Virus record (IMG/VR): IMGVR_UViG_3300010343_000004
From: a virus
Reading direction: 5' to 3' (one strand)
Length of the DNA: 64,000 nt
In this document: piece after piece, positions 14,702 through 45,147 of the stretch
How the letters are laid out: every line of letters begins with the position of its first letter
How positions within the stretch are numbered: the first letter of the stretch is position 1
Position numbers and translations under genes: made by a program
The notes under the pieces: generated by a model
Database searches by the model: none
The model's input: only the letters and a program-made list of their open reading frames with translations
What the model was told of the DNA's origin: nothing

Positions 14702-15009
14702 GCGTCTCCTCCCCCCACGCTTCGCAGGGCTACCTCCCTGTTCTTCTTGCCGTCCTTCTTGCCAGCCTCTTGCCGTTCTCTCGGGATGAGGCGGTAGTGG
14801 ACACCGTTCGCGAGGAGCAAGCGCACCTCTCCCTCCGCAGGGAGCGGCATGCAGTGGCCGCTCATCGAGCCGTGCATGGGGCATGGATAAGGCGCGGCGG
14901 ACGCAAGGAAGGCGGGCAGATGCGCCTCCGCGATGCGCTCGTCCATGCCCCACTCGAGTACGCACCCACACGGGTGTTCCAGAGGGAGCCAGTAAAGGGT
15001 GGCGGTCAT
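14698..15009 (-). CDS. Cys/His-rich hypothetical protein
   Basis: HPCGC...CPMH; start coupled to the polymerase stop. Confidence 0.6.
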   Translation of the reverse strand: MTATLYWLPLEHPCGCVLEWGMDERIAEAHLPAFLASAAPYPCPMHGSMSGHCMPLPAEGEVRLLLANGVHYRLIPRERQEAGKKDGKKNREVALRSVGGGDA

Positions 15010-17570
15010 CCGACTTCTTCCATCGGCCTCGGGAAACCCTCGCCGATCCAGTGGATGAGGCCGTCTTCGCCGAGGTAGTTGTTCGGGTCGGTCGTCGCCG
15101 TCATCTTCATGAGGCGCGTCTCGAAGCGGCCCGGCGTGCGGCCGCTTTTGATGGCGGTCTTCAGGCGCAGCGGCGCGGGCTTCGTCCAGTATTCGAAGCT
15201 CTGCTTCTCGTAGATCTCCCGCATCGCGCGATGGAGCTCTGAAGCGCGGACGAACGACGCCTTCCTCAGGCGCTCCTCGCGCGGCAGCGACATGTCCTTG
15301 AGGGCGGCTTCCACGGCCGGCGTGTGAAACTTCGCGAGCCCATGCTGCGCCTGTTTGTAGAGGGGCTCGTAGAGGCCGGTGTCCTTGTTCTTCTTGTCCG
15401 GGAAGTGGTGCGAGTAGAGCTTCGGCCGGACGAGCAGGCTCTCGATCGACGGCTCGGGACATTCCTCCTCCCAGCTGCCGAGGTTTGGCGATGCGTCGAG
15501 GATGGCGTCCCGCCAACCTTCCGCGACTTTGCGTGGGGCCTTGTACCCAGCCTCCGCCATGATCTCGAAGTAGCGGTTCCAGCCAGGCATCTGCGTGCCG
15601 CTCCTCATCCCCTCGGGGAGTTGGAAGTGCACGCTGTCGGTATCGCCCTGCCAGGCATCGAGCATCTCGGCCATGAGGCCTACGAGCGCGCTCGTCAGGC
15701 CCGTGACCTGCGAGGCGTAGAGCGGCATGAAGTATTGCCCGCACTTGTACTTCTTGAATCCGCTGACGAAGCGAGCGACCGAGAGCGTCGTCCCCTTGTG
15801 CGGCTCGCCCGCCTGATGGAGAGCCTCGACGTAGCAGTAGATGGCGTTCGCGGCGGCGTCGTCGTCCCCAGGCTTGACAAGGCGCTCGGCGGTGCGCCGG
15901 AACTCGTTCTGCGCGCGCCGCATGATGGCTTCGTCCTTGCCCCAGTACATGCGGTCGAAGATCGCGACGCCCGAGCAAGCGAAGAGGAGTGTGATACTCG
16001 CCGCGACCTCGCCGCGAGCCTCGAAGAACGGCATGAGGATCTCGCCCGCGACCATGTAGTCGGTCCCGGTCACCTCGATGAGCTTTCCGTAAAAGGAGTT
16101 CGCGAGGAGCTTGGCCATATCCCGGAGGGCCTTCTCGTTGTCCGGGTTCTCCTTGATGGCGAAGAAGTCGGCGATGCCAGCGCGGATGAAGGACTCCTCG
16201 GAGTCTCCGACCATGACGACGCCGTCGTGCACGCGCTCGATCTTGAGCGAACCGCGCAGGACGCCGATCACGCACTCGGGGATCGTCACCCACACCTTCT
16301 TGAACCGACCCGAGACGTACCGCAGGCGTCCGCCCTGCAGATCGTCGTGCACGCGCAGCGACGGCATCGTGTCGTTCTCTTCGACACCCGAGATGCAGAG
16401 CACGCCGAACCGCCCGCGGTACCACTCGAGCCGGAACGGGCTGTCCCGGTTGATTCGGCTCATCCTCACGGTGACCGGGTCAGGCAGCTGCGCCATCGCC
16501 GAGGGGTAAGCAGACTTGAGGTCGAAGCTCGCCATCCGCTTGTGGATGCCGGGGCGCCTGCAGAAAGCGCGGCCTCCGTAGTACGAATCACAGCCCATCT
16601 GGTCGGCCCAGGCCGGGTAACGCTTCCACTCATCGATGTCTTCGTGGCAGTCGAACGCCTTCGCGAAGACCATGCGCGCCGAGGCGCCAGGGGCTGACGG
16701 TGGGATGACGCCGGTCTTTCGCACCACCCTTGCATCGATCTTGACGAGCAGCTCGCACGTGCGGTGGTAGAGGTCGAGGGTCGTCCTCACGTCGCCGAGC
16801 GCATACTGCTTGAAGAGCGCCCACTCCTCGTCGGTGAGCGACTCGCGCGAGCGCTCGTAGATATTCTCGATCATCGTCTCGATGTCGATCTTTTCTTCGA
16901 CGCCGAGGGCCTTGGCTGCCTTAGCCAGGCTGGTCTTCCAATATCCTGTCAGATCAAGCCCTAGCAACCTCATGACCGTCCTCGTCGTCGGGTGACGGAT
17001 GCGCCAGTCGAAGCTCGGGGCGGTGCCGAGGATCATCTTGCGGACCTCCAGGTCCCACTCGCCCGCTACTTCGATGTGGTAGCTGTCCGCGCCGGCCGCA
17101 ACGGTGCGTAGCGTGTCGAGCCTGTCGGCCAAGAGACGGCCAAAGTCGTAGGGAAAGTTGAAGAGGACAGCGAGCTTGGGCGACAGCTTCTGGCGTTCGC
17201 CGTCGCGGTGCTGGCCTCCTCTGCCGCGCTTGGGGCGCTGGGTCGTCCGGCTCGGGCGCTCTTCTTCTTCGGGCCAGCCTTGCTGCTCCCACATGGCGGC
17301 GAACACCTTGCCGAGCATGCCCTTGCCATCGGGGGTCTCGATGAGCGCAGCCCGATCGTGAAACTGCATCGGAACGAGCAGGCTCGTGAGGTCTCCATTG
17401 GCCTTCAGCGACTCCGTGTCGATCGCGCAGATGTTCTCGATGCGGAGGAGCTCCGTCCCGGTCGCCCTCCTCACGACCGACGGTCCGCGAAAGTGGGCTT
17501 GCACGATGCCTCCCGCCTTGTGGACGTTGTAGTCGCAGACCCTCATCGGTGTTCGCTCTTCCTTGCCCAT
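15006..17570 (-). CDS. family B DNA polymerase, protein-primed (phi29/PRD1-like)
   Basis: Exo IDTES / NFPYDF / YALGDV; YYGGRA; FDLKSAYP; KLLANSFYGK; QGDTDSV; LGSWEEE then RPKLY, with long inserts at the TPR1/TPR2 positions. Confidence 0.9.
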   Translation of the reverse strand: MGKEERTPMRVCDYNVHKAGGIVQAHFRGPSVVRRATGTELLRIENICAIDTESLKANGDLTSLLVPMQFHDRAALIETPDGKGMLGKVFAAMWEQQGWPEEEERPSRTTQRPKRGRGGQHRDGERQKLSPKLAVLFNFPYDFGRLLADRLDTLRTVAAGADSYHIEVAGEWDLEVRKMILGTAPSFDWRIRHPTTRTVMRLLGLDLTGYWKTSLAKAAKALGVEEKIDIETMIENIYERSRESLTDEEWALFKQYALGDVRTTLDLYHRTCELLVKIDARVVRKTGVIPPSAPGASARMVFAKAFDCHEDIDEWKRYPAWADQMGCDSYYGGRAFCRRPGIHKRMASFDLKSAYPSAMAQLPDPVTVRMSRINRDSPFRLEWYRGRFGVLCISGVEENDTMPSLRVHDDLQGGRLRYVSGRFKKVWVTIPECVIGVLRGSLKIERVHDGVVMVGDSEESFIRAGIADFFAIKENPDNEKALRDMAKLLANSFYGKLIEVTGTDYMVAGEILMPFFEARGEVAASITLLFACSGVAIFDRMYWGKDEAIMRRAQNEFRRTAERLVKPGDDDAAANAIYCYVEALHQAGEPHKGTTLSVARFVSGFKKYKCGQYFMPLYASQVTGLTSALVGLMAEMLDAWQGDTDSVHFQLPEGMRSGTQMPGWNRYFEIMAEAGYKAPRKVAEGWRDAILDASPNLGSWEEECPEPSIESLLVRPKLYSHHFPDKKNKDTGLYEPLYKQAQHGLAKFHTPAVEAALKDMSLPREERLRKASFVRASELHRAMREIYEKQSFEYWTKPAPLRLKTAIKSGRTPGRFETRLMKMTATTDPNNYLGEDGLIHWIGEGFPRPMEEVG

Positions 17571-17594
17571 GCGCGTGCCAGCCTCCTCTCGAAA

Positions 17595-18371
17595 CTAGAA
17601 AACCAAGCCACCCTTTGCTCGCTCCTCGTCAGTCATCAGATCGCCGAACCAGAGCTCGACCTCGTACTCGTTCGGATCGATGTCGTAGAACTCGATAAAC
17701 TCCTGCACCTCGTCGTACCCGGCGAGGTATTCCGCAGGGGTCCAGAACCACCGGCGTTCGCCCGTCGACACGCTCGTCACGGCGTAGAGCCGCATCAGCA
17801 CGCCGCCGGGTGCCCAACCGAGGACCATGCCCTCGACGTTGAGCCGCACGCCGACGATCTGCTTGGCCTCCGTGACGTCGGAGTCCCTCTGCGCCAAGAG
17901 CTCCTCGCGCCTCTGCTCCCATTCTTCGCTCTGCTTCTCCTTCTGAATCGTGACCCTGCGCTTGGCTGCCAGGCGTCTCTCGAGCGCTTGGACTACCCCC
18001 GCTGCGGACCTGCCCGGGACGCCGTGGCGACCCCATCCTTCGATCGTCCTCTCCGACTTCTTCAGCCGCTTGGCTGCGCCCTTGCTTCCCAGCTCTCGGA
18101 CGAGGTCCCGAAGGGCCTTGTCGGACTTCCTGCGGACAGCGCGCCTGCGGACAGCGCGCTTTGGCGCTGTTCGCTTCTTCGCTTGCTTCTTCGCTTGCTT
18201 CTTCGGCTGCTTCTTCGGCTGCTTCTTCGGCTGCTTCTTCGGGCGTCTCTCGCGTGTGCGCGCTTTCGGCGCTTTCTTCTTGCGCCTGAGCCGGTCGTCT
18301 ACGGCGCGGCTCTTCCTCGCTCCTTTCCTTTTTGCCCGAGACGTCGAGCCTGACTTTTTGGGTCGCGCCAT
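17595..18371 (-). CDS. very basic protein, candidate terminal protein or DNA-binding protein
   Basis: K/R-rich N-terminal half with KKQP repeats, HTH-like middle, acidic C-terminus; directly upstream of pPolB. Confidence 0.55.
   Translation of the reverse strand: MARPKKSGSTSRAKRKGARKSRAVDDRLRRKKKAPKARTRERRPKKQPKKQPKKQPKKQAKKQAKKRTAPKRAVRRRAVRRKSDKALRDLVRELGSKGAAKRLKKSERTIEGWGRHGVPGRSAAGVVQALERRLAAKRRVTIQKEKQSEEWEQRREELLAQRDSDVTEAKQIVGVRLNVEGMVLGWAPGGVLMRLYAVTSVSTGERRWFWTPAEYLAGYDEVQEFIEFYDIDPNEYEVELWFGDLMTDEERAKGGLVF
18174..18242. repeat. 12-bp coding tandem repeat (about 5.75 units; KKQP/KKQA)
   Basis: CTTCTTCGGCTG / CTTCTTCGCTTG units. Confidence 0.9.
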
Positions 18372-18418
18372 GAGGGATCAAGCCGGCCTCTCTCTGGCGT
18401 TCTTGCTCGCCTGCGCGG

Positions 18419-18637: not shown

Positions 18638-18918
18638 GGACCGAGCCTCCTCGAAGACGGGAGGGCACCGAAGATAGAAGCCGCATCGAGAACGGGGTCC
18701 GTCGCAGGCGCGGGCCGCTCCGCCGGCGCAAGAAGGCTGCCCACGATGGCTGCACCGACGCTCACGACGGTCGACGCCGTCCGGTAGGCACCGGCCTCCG
18801 CAGAGAGGCGGACCACCACCTCGTCCGTGGTCATCCCCCAGCGCGAAGCGAGACGGAGTAGCTCCGCCGCCGCCGGACCGCTCACCGTGACGCGCGGGTA
18901 GGGCTTCCTGCGGGTCAT
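18634..18918 (-). CDS. small RHH-like protein
   Basis: RVTVSGPAAAELLRLASRWGMTTDEVVVRL. Confidence 0.5.
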   Translation of the reverse strand: MTRRKPYPRVTVSGPAAAELLRLASRWGMTTDEVVVRLSAEAGAYRTASTVVSVGAAIVGSLLAPAERPAPATDPVLDAASIFGALPSSRRLGP

Positions 18919-19649
18919 CGGTTGAGCGCCTGGAGGGCGGTGGGTCCGAGGATGACGCGACCATGGTGCGAGAACTCGTCGACGAACCGATGCGTGGCCT
19001 CCTTGTCGTCCGAGACGAGGACGACGCCGGAGGCGTGCGGCGGCTGGTCACCGATCTCGCCGCCCGGCTTTCTGTACTTCAGGCGCGTCCTCGGGACGCA
19101 GATCGCGAAGTCGAGCGGGATGGGGAGCGTCCCCGAGTCGCCGTTCTCCCCCACGGTCGGCGTGTCCGTCTGCGTATTCTGCAGAAGCTCCACGGAGAAC
19201 ATGACGAAGACGGCCGCCGAGGTCCGGCCTGCCCACCACTCCCTCGCGAGCTTGAACCACCACTTCTTTTGGTTGCTCTCCGTACCCTCGTGCTTGTGCG
19301 CCGGGTTCTTCTTGTCGCCACCAGGGAGACCACAGCTGCCGGTGAGCCAGCACTTGGGTTTGACGACGCGCTCGAGGTTGTCGGACAGCCCACCCGGCGG
19401 GTTCAAGAGGATGCGCCCCACCCACTCGCGGCGGTAGCCGTTGTCTTCCCGCGCGAAGTACCTCTCCGCTTTGACGACCCTGTTGGCTTCTTCGCAGCTC
19501 GCCGGATCGAGCTCGATGGTTCCGAGCGTGAGGCGTGCGCTTTCGATAATGTCTTCGGGCGTGTAGTGCTCGCCCGTCTCGGAAGAGTGGCGCGAGGTCA
19601 TCGCGCTCGGTAGCCCCACGGGAAGTGTCTTTGCAGCCACTGTGTTCAT
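18915..19649 (-). CDS. phage-type DNA N6-adenine methyltransferase
   Basis: EHYTPEDII, IELDPASCEEAN, W.GRILLNPPGG. Confidence 0.8.
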   Translation of the reverse strand: MNTVAAKTLPVGLPSAMTSRHSSETGEHYTPEDIIESARLTLGTIELDPASCEEANRVVKAERYFAREDNGYRREWVGRILLNPPGGLSDNLERVVKPKCWLTGSCGLPGGDKKNPAHKHEGTESNQKKWWFKLAREWWAGRTSAAVFVMFSVELLQNTQTDTPTVGENGDSGTLPIPLDFAICVPRTRLKYRKPGGEIGDQPPHASGVVLVSDDKEATHRFVDEFSHHGRVILGPTALQALNR

Positions 19650-20212
19650 ACGAGCTCGACCTCCATCCGCGCGAGCGCCGCACACGCGAGCGCGGTCTCG
19701 CCGAGCGGGGTGACGAAGTAGAATTGCCCTCTGCTTGCACGTTGCAGCGGATGCTCGAGGGTGACGACGCTCGCGAGCCCGGCCGCGACCATCTGGTCGA
19801 GGAGCTGTTCTTCTTGCTCTGAGAGGCACTCCTCCCAGTTTGGTGGAGTCTTCTGCTCGGCGAGAATTCTCTCGCGCATGCGGGACAGGCATCTCATGGG
19901 GCGCTCGCGACCTCGAGCCCGCGCTCGTCGAGAAAGAGGACGCGCGCCGCCCTCGCACGTACGGCGATGGCCTGGGCGGGGCTGATGAAGGTCCCCTCGC
20001 TGAGGGCACCATTCGCATCTTTTTTCGACGCGGTAGCTGACACCTGCCGCGCGCACCAGGACGACGTCCGCGATGCGCATCTTCTCCTCGGTGGAGAGGG
20101 CTTGCCACTCGTGCGCGCACTTCGGGCAGGCGCGGCTCGTGGCGTCCACGCCCTCGGGCGGGAGCCATGGGTTGCGACACGAGACGCAGAGCGGGCGAGG
20201 ATCGATGCTCAT
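19646..20212 (-). CDS. hypothetical protein (may be two genes; second start at 19897)
   Basis: N-terminal CVSC...CPKC; C-terminal wHTH-like YFVTPLG. Confidence 0.5.
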   Translation of the reverse strand: MSIDPRPLCVSCRNPWLPPEGVDATSRACPKCAHEWQALSTEEKMRIADVVLVRAAGVSYRVEKRCEWCPQRGDLHQPRPGHRRTCEGGARPLSRRARARGRERPMRCLSRMRERILAEQKTPPNWEECLSEQEEQLLDQMVAAGLASVVTLEHPLQRASRGQFYFVTPLGETALACAALARMEVELV

Positions 20213-20218
20213 GGGGCC

Positions 20219-21236: not shown

Positions 21237-21238
21237 GG

Positions 21239-25263: not shown

Positions 25264-26124
25264 ATGGGCAACGCAGCCAAGAAGACGCTTGCAGACTTCA
25301 AGAAAACTCGGTGCGGCCGGTGCAGTGACCCGCTCATCGCTGGCGGCTGCATGTGCCGCGGGTGCGGCTACTACAACTTCGGCGTCGGCGGCGCGTACAA
25401 CAAACCCCTCATCCGCCTTGGCGACGCGATCAGCGCGGACCTGAAACGAGTAAGGACCGGCCCGTGGGATCCGGTCTTCGGCAACGGGAAGGTCGGCGGC
25501 GACGGCCTCGTCGAGACTTCGGTCGTGCTCATCGGTGCGGTCCCGGGGTGCGGCAAGTCGACGCTGGCTTTGCAGGCCTGCGACCGTGTGATCGAGGACA
25601 CCGGCAAGGAGGCGCTCTTCATCTCGAGCGAGCAGCTCGTCTCGGAGGTCAAGACCTACGCAGATCGCCTTCAGCTCAAGCACACGAAGAAGATCGTGAT
25701 GATCGACACGGTCGGCGGTTACGACGAGCTCGGCAACCTCGAGGACATCGCCAAGCACGTCATGCCGGGGATCATCATCCTCGATTCGCTCCCCGGTCTC
25801 TGCGGCGACAACCACGACGTGGCTGTCGAGATGTGCGAGGTCCTGAAAAAGGAGGTCAGCGCGAAGGTCAAGGCTCCCTCCATCGTCGTCGACCACGTGA
25901 CCAAGGCCCACGAGATGGCGGGCCTGATGGGTCTGCAGCACTCGGTCGATGTGCTTGCAATCATGGACCGCAACGACGATACGCAGGTCCGGTCGATCTA
26001 CACGCGCAAGAACCGCTTCGGCAAAGCCGGTGAGAAGATCTACCTGCAGATGGTGGAGCGCGGACTCATCCTCGCCAACCACAACCCGGACGAAGACGAC
26101 GAGGACGAGGACGAAGACGACTGA
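25264..26124 (+). CDS. radA: RadA/Sms-family ATPase lacking the Lon-like C-terminal domain
   Basis: C4 Zn finger, Walker A PGCGKST, IILDS, HVTK..EMAG...LQHSVD, KNRFG signature; acidic tail. Confidence 0.85.
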   Translation: MGNAAKKTLADFKKTRCGRCSDPLIAGGCMCRGCGYYNFGVGGAYNKPLIRLGDAISADLKRVRTGPWDPVFGNGKVGGDGLVETSVVLIGAVPGCGKSTLALQACDRVIEDTGKEALFISSEQLVSEVKTYADRLQLKHTKKIVMIDTVGGYDELGNLEDIAKHVMPGIIILDSLPGLCGDNHDVAVEMCEVLKKEVSAKVKAPSIVVDHVTKAHEMAGLMGLQHSVDVLAIMDRNDDTQVRSIYTRKNRFGKAGEKIYLQMVERGLILANHNPDEDDEDEDEDD

Positions 26125-26140: not shown

Positions 26141-26815
26141 ATGGAGACGAGCCCGATCGCTGGCGGCACCGAAGGAGCTGCTCTTTCTGAGAGGAACGTG
26201 AAGAACCCTTGCTCGGTCTGCGGAGTCGAGTCGGTCGAGGGGATGCCGAACTTCTGCGCGCAGCACCGGCACGAGTACCGCTACGAGAACCTCGCGAACC
26301 CCGAAGCGAAGCACGTGCGGATCGCAGAGGAGGACGAGGTCGTCCTCGGCAAGGTCGGCAAGAAGTTCGAGCTCGTGCTCGTGATGGATGGCCTCGTCAG
26401 TGGCGAAGAAACCGTTGAGACGTTCTATCCGTACCGCGTTCTCTTGAACGTCCCTGCGCCAGGCTTCATGATCCTCCACGGCATCTACGTGGGGGGCGAG
26501 ATCGAGGGCCTGCAGAACGAGTCGGCGTCGTTCGTCGAGGAGCTCCGCAAAGTCGGCGTCGCCGTCGGCGGCAAGAACATCCTCACCAGGCAAGCAGAAG
26601 ACGCCTACAACTACTTCCTCCACGAGGTGCAGCGCCAAGAGCTCGAGTGGCACCTGCGCGGACGAAGGCGCCACAAGAGGCTCGGGATGCCGGTCATGAA
26701 ACGCGGAGACCACGTCCGCGTGACGGGCGAGATGACAGGGCTCGTGCCGCAGGGCTACGAATTCGGCACGCCGTTTCGGATCTGCGCCTATGTCGAGGGG
26801 ACCGACAGGCTTTGA
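26141..26815 (+). CDS. hypothetical protein
   Basis: AGGAG RBS; CSVC...CAQH. Confidence 0.65.
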   Translation: METSPIAGGTEGAALSERNVKNPCSVCGVESVEGMPNFCAQHRHEYRYENLANPEAKHVRIAEEDEVVLGKVGKKFELVLVMDGLVSGEETVETFYPYRVLLNVPAPGFMILHGIYVGGEIEGLQNESASFVEELRKVGVAVGGKNILTRQAEDAYNYFLHEVQRQELEWHLRGRRRHKRLGMPVMKRGDHVRVTGEMTGLVPQGYEFGTPFRICAYVEGTDRL

Positions 26816-32016: not shown

Positions 32017-32558
32017 ACGAGAGACGTGTAGACCAGACCAGGAGAGGGCTCATCGCTCTTCTCCTCGCGTGGCCTGCGCTTCTCTTTGCGCGCATCACCG
32101 GTGTGCTCGAAGGCCTCGGGCGGCGCCTGCCGCGCCTCGCCTCGAAGCCTCTCCGCAAAGAGGACGAGCCGACGCTCGTCCGAATCGAGCGTTACTCGTA
32201 CACGGTCAGTAGTCCAGCGAAGCTCGGCGAGCCGAAAGCGGTCGCCATGCAAGGCGCGCCCGACATCTCGATCGCAGCAGACCGCATCGTCGCGAACACG
32301 CCCTGCCCAGGCTTTCTCATCCTCGAGGAGCTCTCGATTGACGGGCGCGACGTGCTCATCGGCGAGGCGACAGACGCCTTCGTCTTCAGCTCGCTCGCGA
32401 TGGGCGGACAGATGCTGCTGCCGCCTATGGGTCCCAAGTCACGCGTCGTGGTGAGAGGCCACTACACGGGCTTCGTTCCGCCGGGCTACGTGGCAGGCGC
32501 CGCGTACTTGCTCTGCCTCACCTTCATGGGGCGCGCTGCCTTCCTCGAGGTAGCCTGA
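32013..32558 (+). CDS. divergent paralogue of the capsid-like beta domain with hydrophobic N-terminus
   Basis: IERYSY...PDISI...PGF...DAF...TGFVPPGY...YL...F.G.A; TRRGLI plus hydrophobic stretch. Confidence 0.65.
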   Translation: MNERRVDQTRRGLIALLLAWPALLFARITGVLEGLGRRLPRLASKPLRKEDEPTLVRIERYSYTVSSPAKLGEPKAVAMQGAPDISIAADRIVANTPCPGFLILEELSIDGRDVLIGEATDAFVFSSLAMGGQMLLPPMGPKSRVVVRGHYTGFVPPGYVAGAAYLLCLTFMGRAAFLEVA

Positions 32559-32559: not shown

Positions 32560-33294
32560 ATGTCCCTCTTCTCGCGTTTGTGCGGCGGCAAAGAAACGAG
32601 CGAATCCGCGCCGGCGCATCGCAGGCCTCTCGGCGAGGAGTACTGGGCCGAGTCGCCAGTGCGTCCGCAGGCGGGGGTTCTCCGCGAGCTCCTCTCGGCC
32701 TGGGTCGACCGTGAAGTATCGAGGAGGCTTACGAACCTGCGCGAGATGCTCCTCGAACCGAACAGGGGCTCATCAATAAAGATCGAGCGTTACTCGTTCG
32801 GCATCCATACGACGATCACGCTCGGTGTGGCCAAGGCGCCGCTCACGTTGACCGGTCAGCCCGACGTCAAGATCCGGCCGCAAAGGGTCATCATGAACGC
32901 ACCCTCGCCCGGGTTCGCGATCATCGACGAGATCAAGGTCGCGAACGTGAGCGTCACCGCCGGCGTGCAGGAAGACGCCTTCAACTATTCGTCTCTCGCG
33001 CACGGCGTGCACCTCGACATGCCGACGCTCTCGCCCGCAAACCGCGCGACCGTCCTCGGCGAGATGACGGGCCGCGTGCCTGAGGGTTTCGGGTTCAAAA
33101 ACCCCACGGGACCAGGATGGGTGGACGAGGGAGCGGACGAAGTCAGTCCCCCGGCGACGCCGGAGGCGACGCCGGAAGGTGGAGAAGTCGGTGCTTTCCT
33201 CGAGGCGCAGAAACCGAAGGTCAATAAGAGGAACCTCGGCGAGAGCTACCTCTTCACGTGCGCGTTCCAGGGACCCGCGACGGTCATCGCCTGA
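32560..33294 (+). CDS. close paralogue of 30638-31366 with an inserted loop of about 50 aa
   Basis: Most of the domain is identical by eye, e.g. IRPQRVIMNAPSPGFAIIDEIKVANVSVT. Confidence 0.75.
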   Translation: MSLFSRLCGGKETSESAPAHRRPLGEEYWAESPVRPQAGVLRELLSAWVDREVSRRLTNLREMLLEPNRGSSIKIERYSFGIHTTITLGVAKAPLTLTGQPDVKIRPQRVIMNAPSPGFAIIDEIKVANVSVTAGVQEDAFNYSSLAHGVHLDMPTLSPANRATVLGEMTGRVPEGFGFKNPTGPGWVDEGADEVSPPATPEATPEGGEVGAFLEAQKPKVNKRNLGESYLFTCAFQGPATVIA

Positions 33295-36791: not shown

Positions 36792-37967
36792 TTGCTCCGC
36801 ACTCTGAGCTTGATGGGCTTGCTCGTCCTCTTGGTGAGCTGCATCGGATGCACATACAATACAACGAATCAAGAGATCATCGCTGTCGAAGGGGCGGATG
36901 GGGGTAGCGACACAGAACCCTCTTTCACCTGTGAGACGGTCCTCGAGCTGCCCGACGGTGGCGAAACAGTTCTCGCGACGACGACGTTGAGCGGGAACGG
37001 TGAAGATGATGGAGATGGTGGAATGCGCGATTCGGCAAATAACCCTACGGAGCAAGTCAAGGGCGGCTGGTCTCAGTCCGGTCCGCTCCAGCAGTTCTTC
37101 CCCAACCAGCGCGTCAAGTGTCAGGCGAATCTGCCGTACTCGCAGTATTACACCGTCCAATTCAACGTTACGCCACAAGACTTGCCTAACGTCACCGACG
37201 GGTCGGGGCCTCCTCCCCTCATCGTCCCGTACGTTTTCGCGTACCGCGCCGTCGCCACGATACGTTGGTCGGTCGAGGGCAACTTCGTCTCGCGGATGGT
37301 CGACGTGGGCAACGGCAACGCGATCTCAGGTCCCGGCCAGGGTTTCGCGATCAGCGTCCAGGATCTTTCCGACGCAATCACGGCCGCCGCGCTAGCTGGA
37401 GGTGTCATCGTCACGAGCGGCTCGCCGGACATCGTCTTCGCAGACGAGCAGGTATTCTCTGCAGGACAACTACTCTTCTTCTCGTCCGATTCAAACGTCT
37501 ACACCGTCGAAGGAGAGACCTTGGGTTTCGTCGACGACAAGCACTGGACGCTCACGACGCCGTTTCTGGGGCCTACCGGCGTGGCCGAAGCTTTCTTGTT
37601 TCTCATGTACACAGTGACGATCCAGGTGACGGAAGGCACGCGCCCGAACCCGGAAGTTCCGCCCACGCTCTTCGCAGCCTCGGTGTTGCTCCCCACATTC
37701 GGAATCGGTGACTCCATCACTGTTCCGGTGCCTCCTGGCTCTGGGGCGAACTCGGTCGAGGTGGTCGCGTTTTCTGCGAATCCTCTCACAAAGCCCAATG
37801 TGATGGTGACTCAGAACAACGGTGGAGGCGCCATCATCAAGGAGTACGACCCTGACATCAACATCGGGTTTGTCTCGCTCATGGCGAACGCGAGCAGCGT
37901 GACCGTTACGAATCAGGATCCGGCCAACGATGTCCGGATCACAATCACTTTCGGGATCGACGGGTAG
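36792..37967 (+). CDS. beta-rich virion-like protein with lipoprotein-like N-terminal extension (internal ATG at 37023)
   Basis: LLVLLVSCIGC lipobox-like; from 37023 it aligns with 38238-39173. Confidence 0.7.
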   Translation: MLRTLSLMGLLVLLVSCIGCTYNTTNQEIIAVEGADGGSDTEPSFTCETVLELPDGGETVLATTTLSGNGEDDGDGGMRDSANNPTEQVKGGWSQSGPLQQFFPNQRVKCQANLPYSQYYTVQFNVTPQDLPNVTDGSGPPPLIVPYVFAYRAVATIRWSVEGNFVSRMVDVGNGNAISGPGQGFAISVQDLSDAITAAALAGGVIVTSGSPDIVFADEQVFSAGQLLFFSSDSNVYTVEGETLGFVDDKHWTLTTPFLGPTGVAEAFLFLMYTVTIQVTEGTRPNPEVPPTLFAASVLLPTFGIGDSITVPVPPGSGANSVEVVAFSANPLTKPNVMVTQNNGGGAIIKEYDPDINIGFVSLMANASSVTVTNQDPANDVRITITFGIDG

Positions 37968-37971: not shown

Positions 37972-38241
37972 ATGAAGCGCGTGGTGCACAAACTCGCATC
38001 GCGCCGGAGGCGTAACCTCTGGAGCCGCAAGATCCAGACGCGCTGGCATCCGCACGCTGGCCTCTTCAAGCTGCCCGCGGACAAGCTCGCGAAGAGGCTT
38101 CTCCACGAGTCGGTCAATCCCGGGCAGGCCGTCAAGCGTCTCAGCTTCTTCATCAACCGAGCGGGCAAGAATCTCCATCCCGACGAGCTCGCACGACTCC
38201 ACCACGCGATGCGCATCCTCGAGTCAAAGAGGGGACCATGA
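37972..38241 (+). CDS. DUF3175-like basic protein with leader
   Basis: LSFFINRAGKNL motif; starts MKRVVHKL. Confidence 0.6.
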   Translation: MKRVVHKLASRRRRNLWSRKIQTRWHPHAGLFKLPADKLAKRLLHESVNPGQAVKRLSFFINRAGKNLHPDELARLHHAMRILESKRGP

Positions 38242-39173
38242 GGCAAGCACCGAACGATCCCACGCGCCCCGTGAGAGACGGCTGGTCGCAGTCCGGGACC
38301 CTCACGACGGGTGTGCCGGGCCAGGTGACCATGCAGGTCGACTTCCCAGTGTCCGAAGTGCACACCATCATGTTTGGGATCATCAACCCGGGCCTCGGTA
38401 TCCCGATCAACCCCATCGCGGTCGTGAGGTGGTCGGTAGAGGGAAACTTCGTCAGCCGGCGTTTCAACGTCGGAAACGGCGTTGCGCTCTCCGCACCCTC
38501 GCAGGCGGTCCGCATCATCATCGACGACGAGACGCCCTTTTTATTCATCAATGTGATTGGCACGGTCGCCGTCACCGAAGGCTCTATGGCCGTTGTCTTT
38601 AGCTCGGCCCAATTCTTCGGCAAGGGAATTCCTCTGGCCTTCAGCTCGCAATCAAACATCATTTACGTCCTGAGCTCGGACATCGACGGTGTCGGGAACG
38701 CGACCCTCTTGACCCCCTACACTGGGCCCACCGATCCAGCGGCGAGCGCCATCATCGAGGCGGCCTACACGGTCGGGGTGCAGATCGCTCCCGGCGTCCG
38801 GGCAAACGACGAGATCCCGGTCACACTGAACGCCGTCATCCCTGAGCAGCCTGGGTTCATACCGGCTCCGGCTTTGAACTTCGTGACGCTGCAGCCCAAG
38901 GGAAGCGTTGGGGCGAACGTCACGATACCCATCCCCATGGATGCCGGGGTGCGTTCGGTCGAGATCACCGCCGATGCCACCTTCCCTCCGGGACCCCAGC
39001 TCAGCGTGATTCAGAGCGTCGCTGGTTTTGTCGTGAAGATATACAGCATCATCACCCCGACGTCCGGGTTCATCGCGATTGCCGCCAACGCGACGCAGAT
39101 CGAGATCCTCAACGAGGACCCGACGCCAGGGATCACAGTCGCGGTGACCATCACCTGGGGCATCGACGGGTAG
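38238..39173 (+). CDS. beta-rich virion-like protein (spike/penton candidate)
   Basis: GWSQSG, RWSVEGNFVSR, ends ITWGIDG like its paralogue. Confidence 0.7.
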   Translation: MRQAPNDPTRPVRDGWSQSGTLTTGVPGQVTMQVDFPVSEVHTIMFGIINPGLGIPINPIAVVRWSVEGNFVSRRFNVGNGVALSAPSQAVRIIIDDETPFLFINVIGTVAVTEGSMAVVFSSAQFFGKGIPLAFSSQSNIIYVLSSDIDGVGNATLLTPYTGPTDPAASAIIEAAYTVGVQIAPGVRANDEIPVTLNAVIPEQPGFIPAPALNFVTLQPKGSVGANVTIPIPMDAGVRSVEITADATFPPGPQLSVIQSVAGFVVKIYSIITPTSGFIAIAANATQIEILNEDPTPGITVAVTITWGIDG

Positions 39174-39177
39174 CGTT

Positions 39178-39300
39178 ATGCCGCGCGAGCTAAACGATAA
39201 GGAAGAGAGCATCGCCTGCATGGCCGCTCGGCGCTCCGCCATCCTTGCTTTGCCGTGCGCCGTACCGACGAAGGAGGTTAGCACGTGCCCCGTGAGCTGA
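39178..39300 (+). CDS. small ORF whose start mimics the next gene (MPREL)
   Basis: MPRELNDKEE vs MPRELTEAE. Confidence 0.3.
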   Translation: MPRELNDKEESIACMAARRSAILALPCAVPTKEVSTCPVS

Positions 39301-40571
39301 CCGAAGCAGAGTGGCGTCTGCGTATGGGGAGCGACTCCGTCCCTGACTATGCGCGCGCACTCGCTGCGGCTGTGGACGCGCGTGGCTTCATGGATGAGGA
39401 CACGTGGGCCACATGCAAGAACTTCCAGAGGGCCTTTGGCCGAGGCCTGAGGAGCGACGGCGTCTACGACGAGGTGACGGCGACAGCTGTCGCGGCAGCC
39501 GGAAAGATCTCCGCCCCATGCGCGTTCTCTCACGGCGCTACGTTCGGCGCGGAAGTCAACATCGCCGCGGTCCAGCAGCGTCTGAACGACCTCGGCTACA
39601 AGCCTGTGCTCCTTGTCGACGGCGTAGCCGGTCAAAAGACCCAGGCCGCCGTCAAGTGGTTCCAGTCGCAGAAAGGCCTCCAGGCGACAGGCGTACTCGA
39701 CGCAGTGACGGTGAGCGCGCTCGCCATCCCGCCTGGCTCCGTGAGGAAGTCGCCCATCGTTCCGGTCGCAGCTCCATCGGTTGCCGGCCTCTGGCAGTCA
39801 GTCGTCGACGCTTTCTTCAACTTCACGCGGCCGCTCGAGGGCTACACGCCCTACCTCTACACAGACTCCAAGGGATTCGTGACAACGGGGATGGGCAACC
39901 TCGTGGAGTCGAAGGGTCAGCCCACGGCCGATGTCTTTGCGCTGCCATGGAAAAAACCCGACGGTTCGCTCGCCTCGCGCGCAGAGATCGCCGCCGCATG
40001 GCAGACCGTAAAGAGCGCATGGCCGAAGGTGCAGTCCTCAGCGAGCCAGAGCCTAACGACGCTGCGTCTCTCCGAAGCGGACGTCGCCAAGCTCGTCTCG
40101 CAGAAGATGGCCCAGAACCAGGCCTACCTCGCGAGCAAGTACCCTGGGATGAGCCAATGGCCTGCCGATGCGCAGATGGCCATCCACGCGCTCTCGTGGG
40201 CGTGGGGAGCCGGCTTCGCGAGCGTGTGGGGCACGTTGGGGCAAAACTTCGCCGCAGCGGTGAACGCTTCGCCGCCGGACTTCGCACGTGCGGCATCGAT
40301 CATGCAGCAGGCGTCCGCACACGAGGAGTCCATCAACCCAGGCCTAGTCCCCCGCGACAAGGCCGTCGCGCTCATGCTGGAGAACGCGGCCGAGGCGCTC
40401 ACGCGCGGCAGCGACCTCGGATCTCTGCTCTATCCCAACACTTTCGAGGCAGGGATGCGCGCGGCGATTGCGCTCGAACGTGCCATCCCATTCTGGGTCA
40501 AGGTCACTGCGTTCGTGGTCACAATCTCCGGCCTCGGTCTCCTCACGCACTCACTCCTGAAGAAGTCATGA
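39285..40571 (+). CDS. lysozyme (GH24-like) with peptidoglycan-binding domains and C-terminal TM helix
   Basis: QQRLNDLGY...VDGVAGQKTQAAVKWFQ; LEGYTPYLYTDSKGFVTTGMGNL; FWVKVTAFVVTISGLGLL. Confidence 0.85.
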   Translation: MPRELTEAEWRLRMGSDSVPDYARALAAAVDARGFMDEDTWATCKNFQRAFGRGLRSDGVYDEVTATAVAAAGKISAPCAFSHGATFGAEVNIAAVQQRLNDLGYKPVLLVDGVAGQKTQAAVKWFQSQKGLQATGVLDAVTVSALAIPPGSVRKSPIVPVAAPSVAGLWQSVVDAFFNFTRPLEGYTPYLYTDSKGFVTTGMGNLVESKGQPTADVFALPWKKPDGSLASRAEIAAAWQTVKSAWPKVQSSASQSLTTLRLSEADVAKLVSQKMAQNQAYLASKYPGMSQWPADAQMAIHALSWAWGAGFASVWGTLGQNFAAAVNASPPDFARAASIMQQASAHEESINPGLVPRDKAVALMLENAAEALTRGSDLGSLLYPNTFEAGMRAAIALERAIPFWVKVTAFVVTISGLGLLTHSLLKKS

Positions 40572-41135: not shown

Positions 41136-41193
41136 CCGATCTTTCTCCCACCCCCCGCCAAACCCGAACCCGAACAAGAGCAAGGAAACCGCC

Positions 41194-41754: not shown

Positions 41755-41784
41755 GGTTCTCGCTCTCTACTCAAGAAGTTGCGT

Positions 41785-42051: not shown

Positions 42052-42073
42052 GGACTTGCCCCTGCAAGTCCTC
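42050..42073 (+). terminator. perfect 10-bp hairpin plus pyrimidine tract
   Basis: GAGGACTTGC-CCCT-GCAAGTCCTC. Confidence 0.6.
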
Positions 42074-42102
42074 CTCTCTCCTTTCTCCTATCCGAGGCTC
42101 CC

Positions 42103-43428
42103 ATGTCCATCAGCAAAGACGACCTGAAGAACGCCCTGCAGAGCTCGGAGACGGGCCACGCGCGACTGCAATCGATGGTCGAACCGGCCTTGAGTAACCC
42201 GAACGTGCCAGCCGAGGTCCGCGCGAAGCTCCAGGCGGACTACAACGACTACGCGACCCAGTACGCGAAGGTTCGCTACGACATCAGCGTTCTCACCGGA
42301 CAGTGGTGGCCATCCTCGGACGACCTCGAAAGCGCCGAAGCGATCCTGCGCGCCGCCGAGAGGCGTCGGCCTGGGATCACGCAGCAAGCCTCCGGCATCC
42401 TCTCTGCACTCGGAACGCCCGTGCCGGCGCCGGTCGCTGAGGTGGCCGCTGCGCCGTCTGGCACCGTGGCGAAGGTCCAGCAGGCCCTCAACTCCATGCG
42501 TGTCCCTCCCCCGAACGCGCCGCTCCTCGTCGACAACAGGCTCGGTACCCAGACGCGCAAGGCGCTGCAGTGGTTTCAGTCGGGCCACGGCCTGCAGCAG
42601 ACGGGCATGGCCGATGCGGCAACGCTCTCGGCGCTCTCGGTCCACGGCGAGGGCCATATGGGCTTCGACTTCGTGACCTACGGCGCAGCCGTTGCGACGG
42701 TGCCGGCGCTCCAAGCAGCCTTGCATGCCTGGAAGCGTTACCGCGGTACGCACGCCCCGACGGTGGCAGCTGTCCCGGGCGTACCGTCATCGGCAGCTGC
42801 GGCGGCGGCCGTGCACGGCGCCTTTGGGATCGATGTCTTCTCCGACCTCTCGCACGACCCGTCGTCAGTCGCGCGGACGCAGCAGCAGCTGAACATGCTC
42901 GGCTGGCGCCTGTCGATCGACGGCGGCCTCGGACCGAAGACAGGCCAGGCCATCGCAAGTTTCCAGCAAACGCACGGCATGAAGCCGACGGGCAGACTCG
43001 ACGTCGTCACCTCGTCGCTCATCGACATGGCGGCGACGACGGGTCAGGCGCCGACCTTCAGCTTCGAGTGGCTGCCGTACGCGCTTGGCGTCGCCACGCT
43101 GCCCGCGCTCAGCGTGGTCCGCCAGACGGTGCACAACTACACGGGCGGGGGAGCGCATATGCGCGGCGAAGAAGATGACGTGGGGTTCGAGTGGATACCG
43201 TACATGCTCGGCGTGGCGACGCTCCCCGCGGCGAGCGCCATCCGCCAGTACGTGCACAGCGCAACTGGTGGGGCTCCTTCGAGAATGTACGGCGAAGACA
43301 ACGTACTCGAACCATGGGAGATGACTCCCCAGCCGTGGGAGCTCGAGTCGACGGAGGCTCAAGACATCCTCTACGGCGACACGATGATGTCCCTGCCGGC
43401 GGATAACCTCGGCAGGGTGAGATTCTAG
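42103..43428 (+). CDS. protein with two peptidoglycan-binding domains and three hydrophobic repeats
   Basis: VQQALNSM...VDNRLGTQTRKALQWFQ; QQQLNMLG...IDGGLGPKTGQAIASFQ. Confidence 0.8.
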   Translation: MSISKDDLKNALQSSETGHARLQSMVEPALSNPNVPAEVRAKLQADYNDYATQYAKVRYDISVLTGQWWPSSDDLESAEAILRAAERRRPGITQQASGILSALGTPVPAPVAEVAAAPSGTVAKVQQALNSMRVPPPNAPLLVDNRLGTQTRKALQWFQSGHGLQQTGMADAATLSALSVHGEGHMGFDFVTYGAAVATVPALQAALHAWKRYRGTHAPTVAAVPGVPSSAAAAAAVHGAFGIDVFSDLSHDPSSVARTQQQLNMLGWRLSIDGGLGPKTGQAIASFQQTHGMKPTGRLDVVTSSLIDMAATTGQAPTFSFEWLPYALGVATLPALSVVRQTVHNYTGGGAHMRGEEDDVGFEWIPYMLGVATLPAASAIRQYVHSATGGAPSRMYGEDNVLEPWEMTPQPWELESTEAQDILYGDTMMSLPADNLGRVRF

Positions 43429-43445
43429 ACCAAGCGAGAACGACC

Positions 43446-44228
43446 ATGAGCATTCAAAACCCCACGGCGAGCGACCTCACGTCGTTCGTCTCCGACCAGG
43501 ACCAGAAAAACTCGTCGCTCGCCGCGCAGGCGCGCGGCATCCCATGGCTCCCGCAGGTTGACCCGACGTGGGTGCGCGACTGGAACGGGTACATGACCCG
43601 GTACGTCCAGGCGCGCGAGACCGCGAACAGGAAAGTCACCGCCTCGGCGGGCCTCTCGCTCGATGACGTGCCGGCGCAAGCCGAGTACGGCGCCCTCTCG
43701 CGGGCAGTCAAGCCCTACGAGGCTGCGCAGTCGACGGGCGACTTCGGCGACCTTTCCGACCGACTCCGGAGCGCGGCTGCACGCGGCGCACCAACAGCGA
43801 GTCCGGGTCGGCTCACCTGGTCACAGGTTCGCCAGAAGCTGAATAGCGCCGGGGCTGTGCCGGCCCTCCCCATCGTCGAGCAAAGCGGCGACGACGTCAT
43901 CCGGGCCATCCAGGGCTTCCAGGCGATGAACAATCTCCCCACGTCGGGCAAGCTCACGCATCAGACGATGTCGTATCTCGCGGCGCACGGGGATGCGGAA
44001 AAACGCCCGGACACGTGGCGTGCGAGGTTCGGGGTAGCGAGCTTCGCCGGTTCTCCGGTGACCGACATCCTCAAGAGCGATGTTCCGAAGTACATCGGAG
44101 CCGGTGCAGTCGTCGGCCTCCTCGCGAAGTCGCTCGGCGCGGGTCTCCTCGGCACAGCGGCCGCAGCCGTCGGCGGCGTCGCGCTCGCAGCCTACGTCAT
44201 CACGCATCCGAGGGCGCAGGCAGCGTAA
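43446..44228 (+). CDS. peptidoglycan-binding-domain protein with C-terminal TM segments
   Basis: VRQKLNSAG...AIQGFQAMNNLPTSGKL; hydrophobic C-terminus. Confidence 0.75.
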   Translation: MSIQNPTASDLTSFVSDQDQKNSSLAAQARGIPWLPQVDPTWVRDWNGYMTRYVQARETANRKVTASAGLSLDDVPAQAEYGALSRAVKPYEAAQSTGDFGDLSDRLRSAAARGAPTASPGRLTWSQVRQKLNSAGAVPALPIVEQSGDDVIRAIQGFQAMNNLPTSGKLTHQTMSYLAAHGDAEKRPDTWRARFGVASFAGSPVTDILKSDVPKYIGAGAVVGLLAKSLGAGLLGTAAAAVGGVALAAYVITHPRAQAA

Positions 44229-44256
44229 AAGGCGAGCGAGGAGGAAGGTCGAAACG

Positions 44257-45147
44257 ATGGGGTCCACATCAGGCAACGCGCTCTGCCGGCGTGCCGACGC
44301 GATCATGGGTGCCCAGTACGGCAAGACCATCTTCGGGACCGATCCGATCACCGGCAGCTACTCCATCGCCGAGGGCAAGGATCTCCTCGCTGCGAAGGAC
44401 AAGGACATGGCCGAGCTCGCGCGTCAGTCGCCGCCCATGCTCGCGGCTTGGCGGCAGAAGGACGCCGCCGGCGCCGGCGCCTGGGACAGGGACTACGCTT
44501 CGCTCAAGAGCCGATACGCCAAGGCGCGCGACACTCTCTCTTCGGCCATCTCGAAGGCGAAGTTCATCCCCGTTCCGGACAACCTGATCACGGCAGACTG
44601 GGCGGACTCGGCTTACAAGGGGCTCCTCACCGCTATCAACCCGTCCTGGACCGCGCACAAGAACGCTCCAGGGTCGATCGGCGACCTCATGGTCCGCCTG
44701 GGCCAGGGCTCGAAGATGGTGATGGAGAAGTACGACGTCCCGCAGCCCAGCGCGAGCAGTGACGCTTCGTTGCAGGTCTTGCAACACACCCCTGCGGTGG
44801 AGAAAGTCATCGACCCAGGCATCGATGCTGCAAGGCGAGCCGCCCAAGCCATCCAGGACGAACTCAAGCGAGAAAAAGAGAGGGCGGAGCATGCCTTCGA
44901 CCTGATGAAGTGGTTTTACGATCATCCGATGCTCACTACCGCCATAGCAGCGAGCTTGGGTGTAGTAGGAATCTACGTCCTCTATCGGATCACCGCCGCT
45001 GCGGCTCCTGTCGCTCTCCGCATCGCAGAAGTGGCTACGCCTCAAGGCAAAGCGCTGACGGCCATCCGCGCGGTGAATGCAGGCCTCGGGTCTTCGCAAC
45101 CCTCTGCGTTCCAGAGCCGCGTGAAAGAGCTTCAGGGAGCTACCTGA
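44257..45147 (+). CDS. helical protein with TM segment near the C-terminus
   Basis: IAASLGVVGIYVLY. Confidence 0.7.
   Translation: MGSTSGNALCRRADAIMGAQYGKTIFGTDPITGSYSIAEGKDLLAAKDKDMAELARQSPPMLAAWRQKDAAGAGAWDRDYASLKSRYAKARDTLSSAISKAKFIPVPDNLITADWADSAYKGLLTAINPSWTAHKNAPGSIGDLMVRLGQGSKMVMEKYDVPQPSASSDASLQVLQHTPAVEKVIDPGIDAARRAAQAIQDELKREKERAEHAFDLMKWFYDHPMLTTAIAASLGVVGIYVLYRITAAAAPVALRIAEVATPQGKALTAIRAVNAGLGSSQPSAFQSRVKELQGAT

Follow-up and report, generated by a model that had tools for sequence, protein, structure and literature searches.

The 64,000-nucleotide stretch of DNA analyzed here (the window) is probably the central two thirds of a >96-kb genome of an uncultivated soil bacterial virus, one that would belong to a widespread, apparently undescribed lineage of bacterial viruses that are tailless, likely membrane-containing and protein-primed and whose genomes are unusually large, a judgment that covers this reading as a whole. 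It is drawn from the identity of the protein-primed family B DNA polymerase (pPolB), whose nearest isolate counterparts are tectivirus-type; from AF2 jelly-roll folds with virus capsid proteins among their matches; from a late module that is conserved among relatives and sits beside very different pPolBs, shuffling of a sort typical of viruses; from the lack of conjugation or other NTPase machinery, with one canonical Walker A in 96 kb; from lysis-type genes; and from Pfam and PHROG searches that turned up no hallmark gene of tailed phages. Further support comes from near-identical contigs reaching at least 96 kb and from a syntenic relative on a 193-kb contig. Weighing against the viral reading are the fold-level nature of the structural matches, which are shared by carbohydrate-binding modules (CBMs), GOLD domains and Ena pili, the weak match of a 311-aa protein to the phiCjT23 capsid, and the failure to find an FtsK/HerA/A32-type packaging ATPase or, by pattern scans, a relative in IMG/VR. 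The first-pass annotation had proposed an unusually large tailless membrane virus or linear phage-plasmid of a possibly undescribed lineage; the predicted jelly rolls, the lack of recognizable tailed-phage genes and a length of at least 96 kb uphold this proposal, whereas the missing packaging ATPase and the fold-level capsid matches do not. The proposal withstood two of the refuting conditions set with it, no recognizable terminase, portal or HK97 gene lying in the 32 kb outside the window and the polymerase matching the protein-primed family only.

Contigs 99.9–100% identical to the window extend its sequence to at least 96 kb, in agreement with the earlier claim of a genome above 64 kb, and repeats interrupt the assembly at both contig ends. 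The extra 32 kb contain RtcB and a type I-E cas operon accompanied by a CRISPR array of 24 repeats. Transcription directions diverge from a point near 25.2 kb, giving two outward-read arms. The leftward arm would be devoted to replication and host takeover (terminal-protein candidate, pPolB, intein-bearing ribonucleotide reductase (RNR), methyltransferases, ParB-like protein and glycan-modifying enzymes), followed past the window by RtcB and type I-E CRISPR-Cas with its own array. The rightward arm starts with a RadA/Sms-like ATPase and continues into a putative structural and exit/entry module, in which four single-jelly-roll paralogues are joined by a Cys protein resembling transglutaminases, by two proteins with two jelly rolls each, one of them lipoprotein-like, and by several tail-anchored membrane proteins and peptidoglycan (PG)-binding lysin-like proteins. 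Downstream, small proteins with a leader in common form a long array.

The 854-aa product of 15006..17570 (−) is a protein-primed family B polymerase by family and motifs, as had been claimed, with PF03175 (E 1.3e-14) as its sole Pfam match and further matches to PHROG DNA polymerases; its profile found no match in the PDB. The Exo/Pol/KxY motif set is complete: DxE, Nx3YD, Yx3D, DxxSAYP, Kx3NSxYGK, DTD and KxY are invariant in 20 homologues, the residues being D51/E53, N138-Y141-D142 and Y256/D260 (Exo I–III), D350-S353-Y355-P356, K487..Y494-G495-K496 and D643-T644-D645 (Pol A/B/C), and K717/Y719 (KxY). Its matches are confined to the protein-primed family, with none to RNA-primed PolB profiles. 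Among isolates, tblastn returned only tectivirus-type polymerases, and every one of 81 further homologues stems from metagenomes or metagenome-assembled bins. This polymerase would prime on a terminal protein, and the gene at 17595..18371 (−), 24 bp upstream and encoding 258 aa, is by its position the candidate. This protein, nominated at first pass, has a very basic N-terminus with KKQP repeats and a conserved C-terminal domain, its 180 C-terminal residues sharing 67% identity with the product of the gene that occupies the same position in the 193-kb relative; no family match was obtained in profile searches, PHROGs included.

The RNR, glycosyltransferase and ParB named in the first-pass annotation were recovered by profile matches as an intein-bearing RNR (7290..10592, −; 1100 aa; ATP-cone PF03477 4.7e-17, LAGLIDADG intein PF14528 1.5e-10, weak PF02867), a sulfotransferase with a GT-like N-terminal part (5974..7269, −; PF17784 2.3e-37; a 431-aa gene call in a near-identical contig) and a 458-aa ParB-like protein (2770..4146, −; TIGR00180 2.4e-8; PHROG ParB-like families, best 7e-11). 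A DNA methyltransferase-like protein of uncertain start lies at 18915..20180 (−; phrog_111 8.9e-14, weak PF05869). Left of the window, the gene table lists PF22590, PF09344, PF09704 and PF08798, the Cas3, Cas7e, Cas5 and Cas6e set of a type I-E system, and an array of 24 repeats of 29 nt with a period of ~61 nt, fitting type I-E (29-nt repeats, 32–33-nt spacers). The array reaches the contig end, and Cas1/Cas2 were not seen up to that point. The cas operon is physically linked to the element: the contig passes from element genes to cas operon and array without a break, and an independent assembly has the same junction. This continuity, together with the one relative residing on a 193-kb contig, would suit a chromosomally integrated element, a pipolin- or casposon-like island next to the cas operon and array of its host. 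We consider such an island quite unlikely, given that the cas region has the composition of the element (tetranucleotide r 0.95), that integrase, Cas1 and recombinase are absent from the gene tables of the 96 kb, that no housekeeping genes were seen, that a pattern scan of 185,579 species genomes retrieved no relative, and that the divergence point falls roughly halfway along the 96-kb sequence and likewise along the 193-kb one.

The rightward arm opens at 25264..26124 (+) with a 286-aa RadA/Sms-like ATPase (PDB RadA 2.8e-14; TIGR00416 2.1e-22, a score far below the equivalog cut-off), which combines a Zn ribbon with Walker A and KNRFG and lacks a Lon-like domain, its length leaving no room for one. 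This protein holds the only canonical Walker A in the 96 kb. The FtsK/A32-type packaging ATPase that the first-pass annotation proposed to look for beyond the window was not found, nor was one of HerA type, anywhere in the 96 kb, the sole P-loop ATPase being the RadA/Sms-like one.

The beta-rich capsid-like paralogues described earlier share a domain predicted by AF2 to be a jelly roll, and there are four of them, not three. For the 242-aa protein encoded at 30638..31366 (+), which has more than 305 homologues, AF2 predicts an eight-stranded jelly roll (pLDDT 77, core >90) at residues 118–242, preceded by a disordered N-terminus and a helix at 86–110. The 244-aa paralogue at 32560..33294 (+), which carries an acidic/Pro loop, is 67% identical to it, the two genes having 334 nt in common at 82% identity, while the 181-aa paralogue at 32013..32558 (+), with an N-terminal hydrophobic segment (residues 12–32), and the divergent 224-aa paralogue at 26141..26815 (+) show 34% and 30% identity, respectively, in alignment with the single-jelly-roll family. 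Foldseek returned the SPV1 capsid protein as top PDB match (E 7.5e-3), and VIA Z scores were 7.1 for HHIV-2, 6.5 for SPV1, 5.8 for HCIV-1 and 5.7 for P23-77 VP17, scores of 5.7–7.7 for this model being, according to the tool, common for unrelated proteins, and those for HHIV-2, HCIV-1 and P23-77 VP17 falling in the range of unrelated beta sandwiches; values like those of capsids were also obtained for CBMs, GOLD domains and Ena pilus subunits. The 168-aa protein at 31510..32016 (+), previously called a Cys protease, has a transglutaminase-like Cys-His-Asp arrangement and is conserved in distant relatives (48% identity to its counterpart in relative L013, in a conserved neighborhood), its match to PF01841 (Transglut_core, E 0.008) being below threshold.

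A second family is represented by a 311-aa protein (38238..39173, +) for which AF2 predicts two jelly rolls (pLDDT 91.4, pTM 0.85), making it a candidate double-jelly-roll-like capsid/vertex protein, and by a 391-aa paralogue (36792..37967, +; 38% identity in alignment) with a signal/lipobox-like N-terminus of which residues 1–23 are hydrophobic. The family of the 311-aa protein counts 617 cluster representatives. Its best full-length two-domain match is the phiCjT23 capsid protein, at a weak Z of 7.4 over 175 residues with an rmsd of 6.9 Å; further matches are to a PNGase F-type cluster (TM 0.41) and to STIV A223 (E 1.8e-5), and the capsid proteins of PRD1, PM2 and STIV are not among the matches listed. 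Taking both jelly-roll models together, capsid proteins of SPV1, HHIV-2, HCIV-1, P23-77, STIV, PBCV-1 and phiCjT23 appear among the structural matches. At the level of AF2 models we regard the jelly-roll folds of the late proteins as established; their resemblance to capsid proteins is one of shared fold, at Z scores of 6–8, and falls short of demonstrated capsid-family homology. As major capsid candidate, the 311-aa protein with its two jelly rolls may be likelier than the ~120-aa paralogues.

The membrane and PG-binding proteins noted at first pass are present, with PF01471 matches in the genes starting at 39285, 42103 and 43446 and hydrophobic anchors in at least seven late proteins. The 428-aa product of 39285..40571 (+) combines a PG-binding domain (PF01471 8e-19; PHROG endolysin families 7.7e-15), a lysozyme-like middle part, its motif taken from the sequence only, and a C-terminal membrane anchor (residues 401–421). 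The 441-aa protein at 42103..43428 (+) contains two PG-binding domains (PF01471 1.2e-22 in two stretches; PHROG endolysin families), and gene calls at 43446..45147 (+) give two tail-anchored membrane proteins of 260 and 296 aa (anchors at residues 217–235 and 224–243), the first with a weak PF01471 match. Next comes a conserved, mostly helical 334-aa protein (45543..46547, +) with no match in Pfam or PHROG and 28% identity over 281 aa to a 294-aa protein of L013. A TnpB/IS605 OrfB insertion (47634..48755, −; PF01385 and PF07282 in the gene table) is followed at 48801..62999 (+) by an array of small ORFs with the common N-terminal leader [ST]A[KR]x[VI][ATSG]x[KR]L, for which a motif scan found 14 strict matches, all N-terminal and on the + strand, and two more past the window.

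The late module combines a RadA-like ATPase and a PG-binding lysin with a single-jelly-roll, a transglutaminase-like and a two-jelly-roll protein. Hundreds of soil metagenome contigs, many with very different pPolBs, have this module, which forms the core that a large family of uncultivated elements has conserved. The structural module is found neither in PHROGs nor in isolated phages. The two-jelly-roll family occurs in 22 of the 26 relatives with sufficient downstream DNA, and 15 of the 25 with sufficient upstream DNA encode a RadA-like ATPase upstream of the jelly-roll gene. The syntenic relative on the 193-kb contig was seen over 37 kb, so that the outer parts of that contig could be host DNA. 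As an alternative, the element would be a large protein-primed plasmid, a non-viral linear extrachromosomal element whose jelly-roll, lipoprotein and PG-binding proteins serve in envelope or adhesion functions and form no part of a virion. The ParB-like protein, CRISPR-Cas with its array, TnpB and many accessory enzymes resemble plasmid cargo, CBM, GOLD and Ena pilus matches score as high as capsids, and a packaging ATPase was not found. We nevertheless hold a plasmid to be unlikely: conjugation genes, a replication initiator and a partition ATPase were not found in the 96 kb, the jelly-roll module is what is most conserved across relatives with differing polymerases, which would be expected of a virion module more than of cargo, PG-binding proteins of endolysin type adjoin it, and for three late proteins the nearest atlas clusters mostly carry viral labels, albeit automatic ones.

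Uroviricota is among those labels, and huge tailed phages are similar in genome size and in having RNR, methyltransferases and CRISPR-Cas; with the genome ends unseen on both sides, HK97 capsid, portal, terminase and tail genes of a member of Caudoviricetes might lie there or be too divergent for profiles. Their absence, claimed at first pass, is borne out by zero matches in precomputed Pfam tables covering ~84 of the 96 kb, with direct scans of single ORFs serving for window positions 19.3–28.2 kb, and by no match among ~50 proteins compared with PHROGs; the 32 kb outside the window likewise have no recognizable tailed-phage hallmark gene. Terminases are normally easily detected and a further canonical Walker A is lacking, jelly-roll folds are predicted for the two late proteins of highest conservation, and smaller relatives keep the module without tailed-phage genes in 20-kb stretches, all of which makes a tailed phage highly improbable.

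Returning to the viral lineage of tailless type, we infer that the element forms virions with capsid roles for its jelly-roll proteins, the major capsid protein among them, and an internal membrane, and that its protein-primed DNA is linear with inverted terminal repeats. A terminal protein would cap the DNA ends, from which the strand-displacing pPolB would replicate it, and the jelly-roll proteins would build a tailless icosahedral shell around an internal membrane holding the tail-anchored proteins, with PG-binding and lysozyme-like proteins acting in wall penetration and/or lysis. Among the closest known systems are the Tectiviridae (PRD1, Bam35/GIL01, Streptomyces and Microbacterium tectiviruses), which share the bacterial host, a protein-primed polymerase with an adjacent terminal-protein gene (a candidate here), jelly-roll structural proteins and a late module with membrane-associated and PG-degrading proteins. 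Their genomes are ~15–18 kb, however, versus >96 kb here, their capsid protein is a clear double jelly roll and their packaging ATPase is of FtsK/HerA type where the element has a weak capsid match and a RadA-like ATPase only, and no sequence similarity between the structural genes was found. Sphaerolipoviridae and relatives (SH1, HHIV-2, HCIV-1, P23-77) also cluster single-jelly-roll paralogues of ~170–290 aa downstream of an ATPase gene, and HHIV-2, HCIV-1 and P23-77 VP17 are among the structural matches at fold level only (Z 5.7–7.1), but their genomes are ~17–31 kb, with no known pPolB gene and an A32/FtsK-like ATPase. Finnlakeviruses (FLiP, phiCjT23) have a small circular genome of ~9 kb ssDNA, and they, like Portogloboviridae, differ from the pPolB-bearing element in rolling-circle or unknown replication; phiCjT23 and SPV1 supply the best two-domain match and the top Foldseek PDB match, respectively. 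Portogloboviridae (SPV1) and Finnlakeviridae have a jelly-roll capsid and internal membrane without a packaging ATPase (PMC8812541), SPV1 being a circular 20 kb dsDNA virus of an archaeal host (PMC8459092), and archaeal Sphaerolipoviridae-type members have linear DNA, terminal proteins and an internal membrane (PMC12643093). Huge CRISPR-Cas phages share a genome size of ~100–200 kb, RNR, methyltransferases and Cas1/Cas2-less CRISPR-Cas with its own array, yet they are tailed phages that replicate by RNA priming and have an HK97 capsid, a portal and a terminase, features not found in the element.

A bolder version, which we put forward tentatively and as rather doubtful, is a globally distributed, undescribed order- or class-level tailless jelly-roll lineage whose largest members, at 96 to ~190 kb, would pass the ~50-kb ceiling known for protein priming, with their own CRISPR-Cas, a RadA/Sms-derived hexameric translocase replacing the FtsK/A32 motor, and dozens of leader-tagged proteins loaded in the particle. 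To our knowledge, only small genomes replicate by protein priming, namely those of phi29, tectiviruses, adenoviruses, polintons and some archaeal viruses, a picture shared by replication-module surveys, and pPolB together with jelly-roll structural genes has until now been known from several-fold smaller genomes only. A bacterial element of at least 96 kb relying on pPolB would mean that replication primed at the ends and free of helicase works at far larger sizes than had been assumed, and the possible 193-kb relative would push the size range further still. A virus of this kind carrying type I-E CRISPR-Cas would be new, and, should the RadA-like ATPase and jelly-roll proteins be virion-assembly genes, they would provide a new case for the evolution of jelly-roll capsids and packaging machinery. 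The occurrence of the module on hundreds of soil contigs, while absent from PHROGs and isolates, points to a large blind spot of soil viromics pipelines tuned to tailed phages.

The window (65% G+C, with no tRNA genes) has a divergent layout: judged by codon-position G+C, the coding strand is minus from position 1 up to about 25.2 kb and plus from 25.26 kb onward to the window end. In the leftward arm, the ORF at 15006–17570 (−) has PF03175, the protein-primed polymerase family, as its sole family match (E 1.3e-14), and 20 aligned homologues show no variation in the exonuclease motifs, in polymerase motifs A, B and C or in KxY, in line with its first-pass annotation as a protein-primed family B DNA polymerase (pPolB). 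Among isolated phages and plasmids it matches only tectivirus-type polymerases, at 25–31% identity and over part of the protein; pattern scans of GTDB species genomes and IMG/VR returned no relatives, and its profile gave no meaningful PDB sequence match. Directly upstream, 17595–18371 encodes a very basic protein whose C-terminal domain recurs in the same position in a relative at 67% identity. Since this protein matches no family, it is called a candidate terminal protein on the strength of its position. The RNR, which bears an intein, and the ParB-like protein reported earlier were both recovered, as were a sulfotransferase fusion and a methyltransferase.

The window's own contig measures 81,199 bp. 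A 39-mer of the window had no exact match in viral, genome or metagenome collections. Two contigs from another assembly, ERZ27315302, match the window at 99.9–100% identity and abut at about 19.35 kb, a junction that the window bridges, so that the combined span is about 96 kb and the proposed size of more than 64 kb holds. The 96 kb is a lower bound because the left end runs out in a CRISPR array and the right end inside a collagen-like repeat; as both outer contig ends thus sit in repeats, the finding of no inverted repeat between them is uninformative as to inverted terminal repeats. Leftward of the window, small ORFs without known function are followed by a gene for the RNA ligase RtcB (12615–13589 of left-hand stretch L008), which may repair tRNA or rRNA cleaved by host defences, and then by a type I-E-like operon, cas3, large subunit (cas8), cas7, cas5 and cas6, with its array (1–11001 of L010, about −12.6 to −23.6 kb in window coordinates), at which no cas1 or cas2 is visible. 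The array comprises 24 repeats of 29 nt with spacers of 32–33 nt, reaches the contig end and degenerates on the side facing the cas genes; its spacers matched none of the sequences compared in this analysis. In two assemblies the operon and the element are physically joined, the independent one having the same junction, and the cas region has the composition of the element.

The late module of the rightward arm contains two families of jelly-roll proteins. A domain common to 30638–31366 and 32560–33294 recurs in 32013–32558 and, more distantly, in 26141–26815. Between the two closest paralogues, 334 nt are 82% identical (30953–31285 versus 32740–33072), which suggests that one copy arose fairly recently by duplication in this genome. 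This single-jelly-roll family has more than 305 metagenome members, 45–68% identical over the domain. In its AlphaFold2 model, built from 60 sequences, the N-terminus is disordered and a long helix is followed by a jelly roll of eight strands; pLDDT is mostly above 90 over residues 118–242. Among solved structures Foldseek ranks the SPV1 capsid protein first (E 7.5e-3), and an exhaustive aligner lists PHM (Z 7.7), the EhV capsid (7.3), HHIV-2 (7.1), SPV1 (6.5), HCIV-1 (5.8) and P23-77 VP17 (5.7), with carbohydrate-binding modules, nucleoplasmin and GOLD domains alongside the capsid matches. By the aligner's own calibration, the modelled resemblance to capsid proteins is one of fold only. For the beta-rich, capsid-like paralogues proposed earlier, the jelly-roll fold is borne out by this model, and the capsid likeness stands at fold level. 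The family profile has no meaningful PDB sequence match, tblastn found no match in isolated phage records, and a complex prediction for two of the paralogues scored 0.00, which counts neither for nor against binding.

The second family, of 617 cluster representatives, includes the 311-aa protein at 38238–39173 and a 391-aa lipoprotein-like paralogue (36792–37967). The confident 311-aa model (pLDDT 91.4, pTM 0.85) contains two jelly-roll domains, and a small beta domain is inserted in the first of them. Taken singly, the jelly rolls match modules of the GOLD, SIDT and CBM kinds (Z 8–11); the best full-length matches are weak, namely the phiCjT23 double-jelly-roll capsid protein (Z 7.4 over 175 residues, rmsd 6.9 Å), a PNGase F-type cluster (TM 0.41) and STIV A223. 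PNGase F and PHM have themselves been classed as double-jelly-roll proteins (Krupovic and colleagues, PMC8812541). On the basis of the two modelled jelly rolls and these weak full-length matches, the 311-aa protein is a candidate double-jelly-roll-like capsid or vertex protein. Its family profile also lacks a meaningful PDB sequence match; when all members of both families were compared with PHROG, scattered chance matches alone were obtained, and neither family has a representative in PHROGs or isolated phages.

The precomputed Pfam tables, which extend over about 84 of the 96 kb (window 19.3–28.2 kb being covered by direct scans of single ORFs only), list no family of terminases, portals, HK97 capsids or tail proteins, and the PHROG matches of about 50 scanned proteins were confined to polymerase, methyltransferase, ParB, helicase-like and endolysin PG-binding families. 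The absence of recognisable tailed-phage genes noted earlier thus extends over this span, and we regard a cryptic tailed phage as very unlikely. The FtsK/A32-type packaging ATPase that had been expected did not appear either: the sole genuine canonical Walker A protein in a six-frame motif scan, encoded by 25264–26124 at the head of the late arm, has a Zn ribbon and a KNRFG motif and matches RadA/Sms (PDB 2.8e-14, TIGR00416 2.1e-22), and is therefore a truncated RadA/Sms-like protein without the Lon domain and not a packaging enzyme of that type. It occupies the position where jelly-roll viruses usually have their packaging ATPase, and may be either a helicase for recombination or a packaging motor of a new kind; FLiP and SPV1 are without packaging ATPases (Krupovic and colleagues, PMC8812541). 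A homologue opens the late arm, upstream of the single-jelly-roll gene, in 15 of 25 relatives with enough upstream sequence (loci L027, L034, L047 and L071 among them) and is absent nearby in the other 10, which rules it out as a universal core gene. The membrane and PG-binding proteins described earlier are present, with PF01471 domains in three late proteins and C- or N-terminal hydrophobic anchors in at least seven; a 428-aa protein has a putative lysozyme-like stretch, E-G...Y-x-D-x-x-G-x-x-T-x-G-x-G, read by eye.

Beyond these genes, 14 small window ORFs (48801–62999) and two more in the right-hand stretch L001 (14525–16842), all on the plus strand, have the strict leader motif [ST]A[KR]x[VI][ATSG]x[KR]L no more than a few residues from their start, ahead of unrelated bodies; the leader could serve in sorting or loading. 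A TnpB/IS605 OrfB gene (47634–48755, −) is inserted in the opposite orientation and separates the late module from this array, and a 138-bp direct repeat (56384–56521 and 57579–57716, 97% identity) brackets a gene-poor stretch with short minus-strand ORFs, possibly the right arm's second regulatory region. The rightward extension adds, besides the further leader-tagged ORFs, an N6/N4 methyltransferase, two paralogous Ala/Gly-rich proteins of 433 and 536 aa (L001 11238–14280), which have in common an N-terminal GFDLG motif and an HGF(N/D)TAVALH domain, and after them a secreted thaumatin-like protein (L001 15297–16256; PF00314, 1e-13), unusual for a bacterial virus. Collagen-like GPxGPx repeats, within which the assembly breaks, occur at the right contig end (L098 1–140) and in a 216-aa protein (L001 18825–19475, −) adjoining a truncated IS1595-type Zn-ribbon gene.

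Relatives were found in other metagenomes. One, with a 74%-identical polymerase, lies mid-way in a 193,332-bp contig and, over the 37 kb compared, matches the window in its divergent layout and its late genes. A scan of JGI metagenomes gave 80 loci with a single-jelly-roll gene, 19 of them with 690–770-aa ORFs bearing pPolB motifs; where there was enough sequence, the two-jelly-roll family followed 2.5–9 kb downstream in 22 of 26. Relatives' contigs reach 44–78 kb, and L047 and L068, of about 24 kb each, overlap as pieces of one genome that measures at least 34 kb, which rules out such contigs as complete genomes. A subgroup of 51% G+C has the window's single-jelly-roll, transglutaminase-like, membrane, two-jelly-roll, PG-binding and 294-aa proteins, together with a polymerase that has the catalytic motifs alone in common with that of the window. 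A conserved late module beside exchangeable replication genes is the pattern to be expected of a virus lineage. We hold a plasmid-like, non-viral linear element to be a minority possibility and an integrated island to be improbable. A full-text literature search, which cannot prove absence, found no description of the lineage. As a whole, the first-pass observation (pPolB, jelly rolls, size and absent tailed-phage genes) is confirmed and extended. The jelly-roll proteins are candidate capsid proteins by modelled fold and gene context, and the best available interpretation, which we consider probable, is that of a large, tailless, protein-primed and probably membrane-containing virus of an undescribed lineage.
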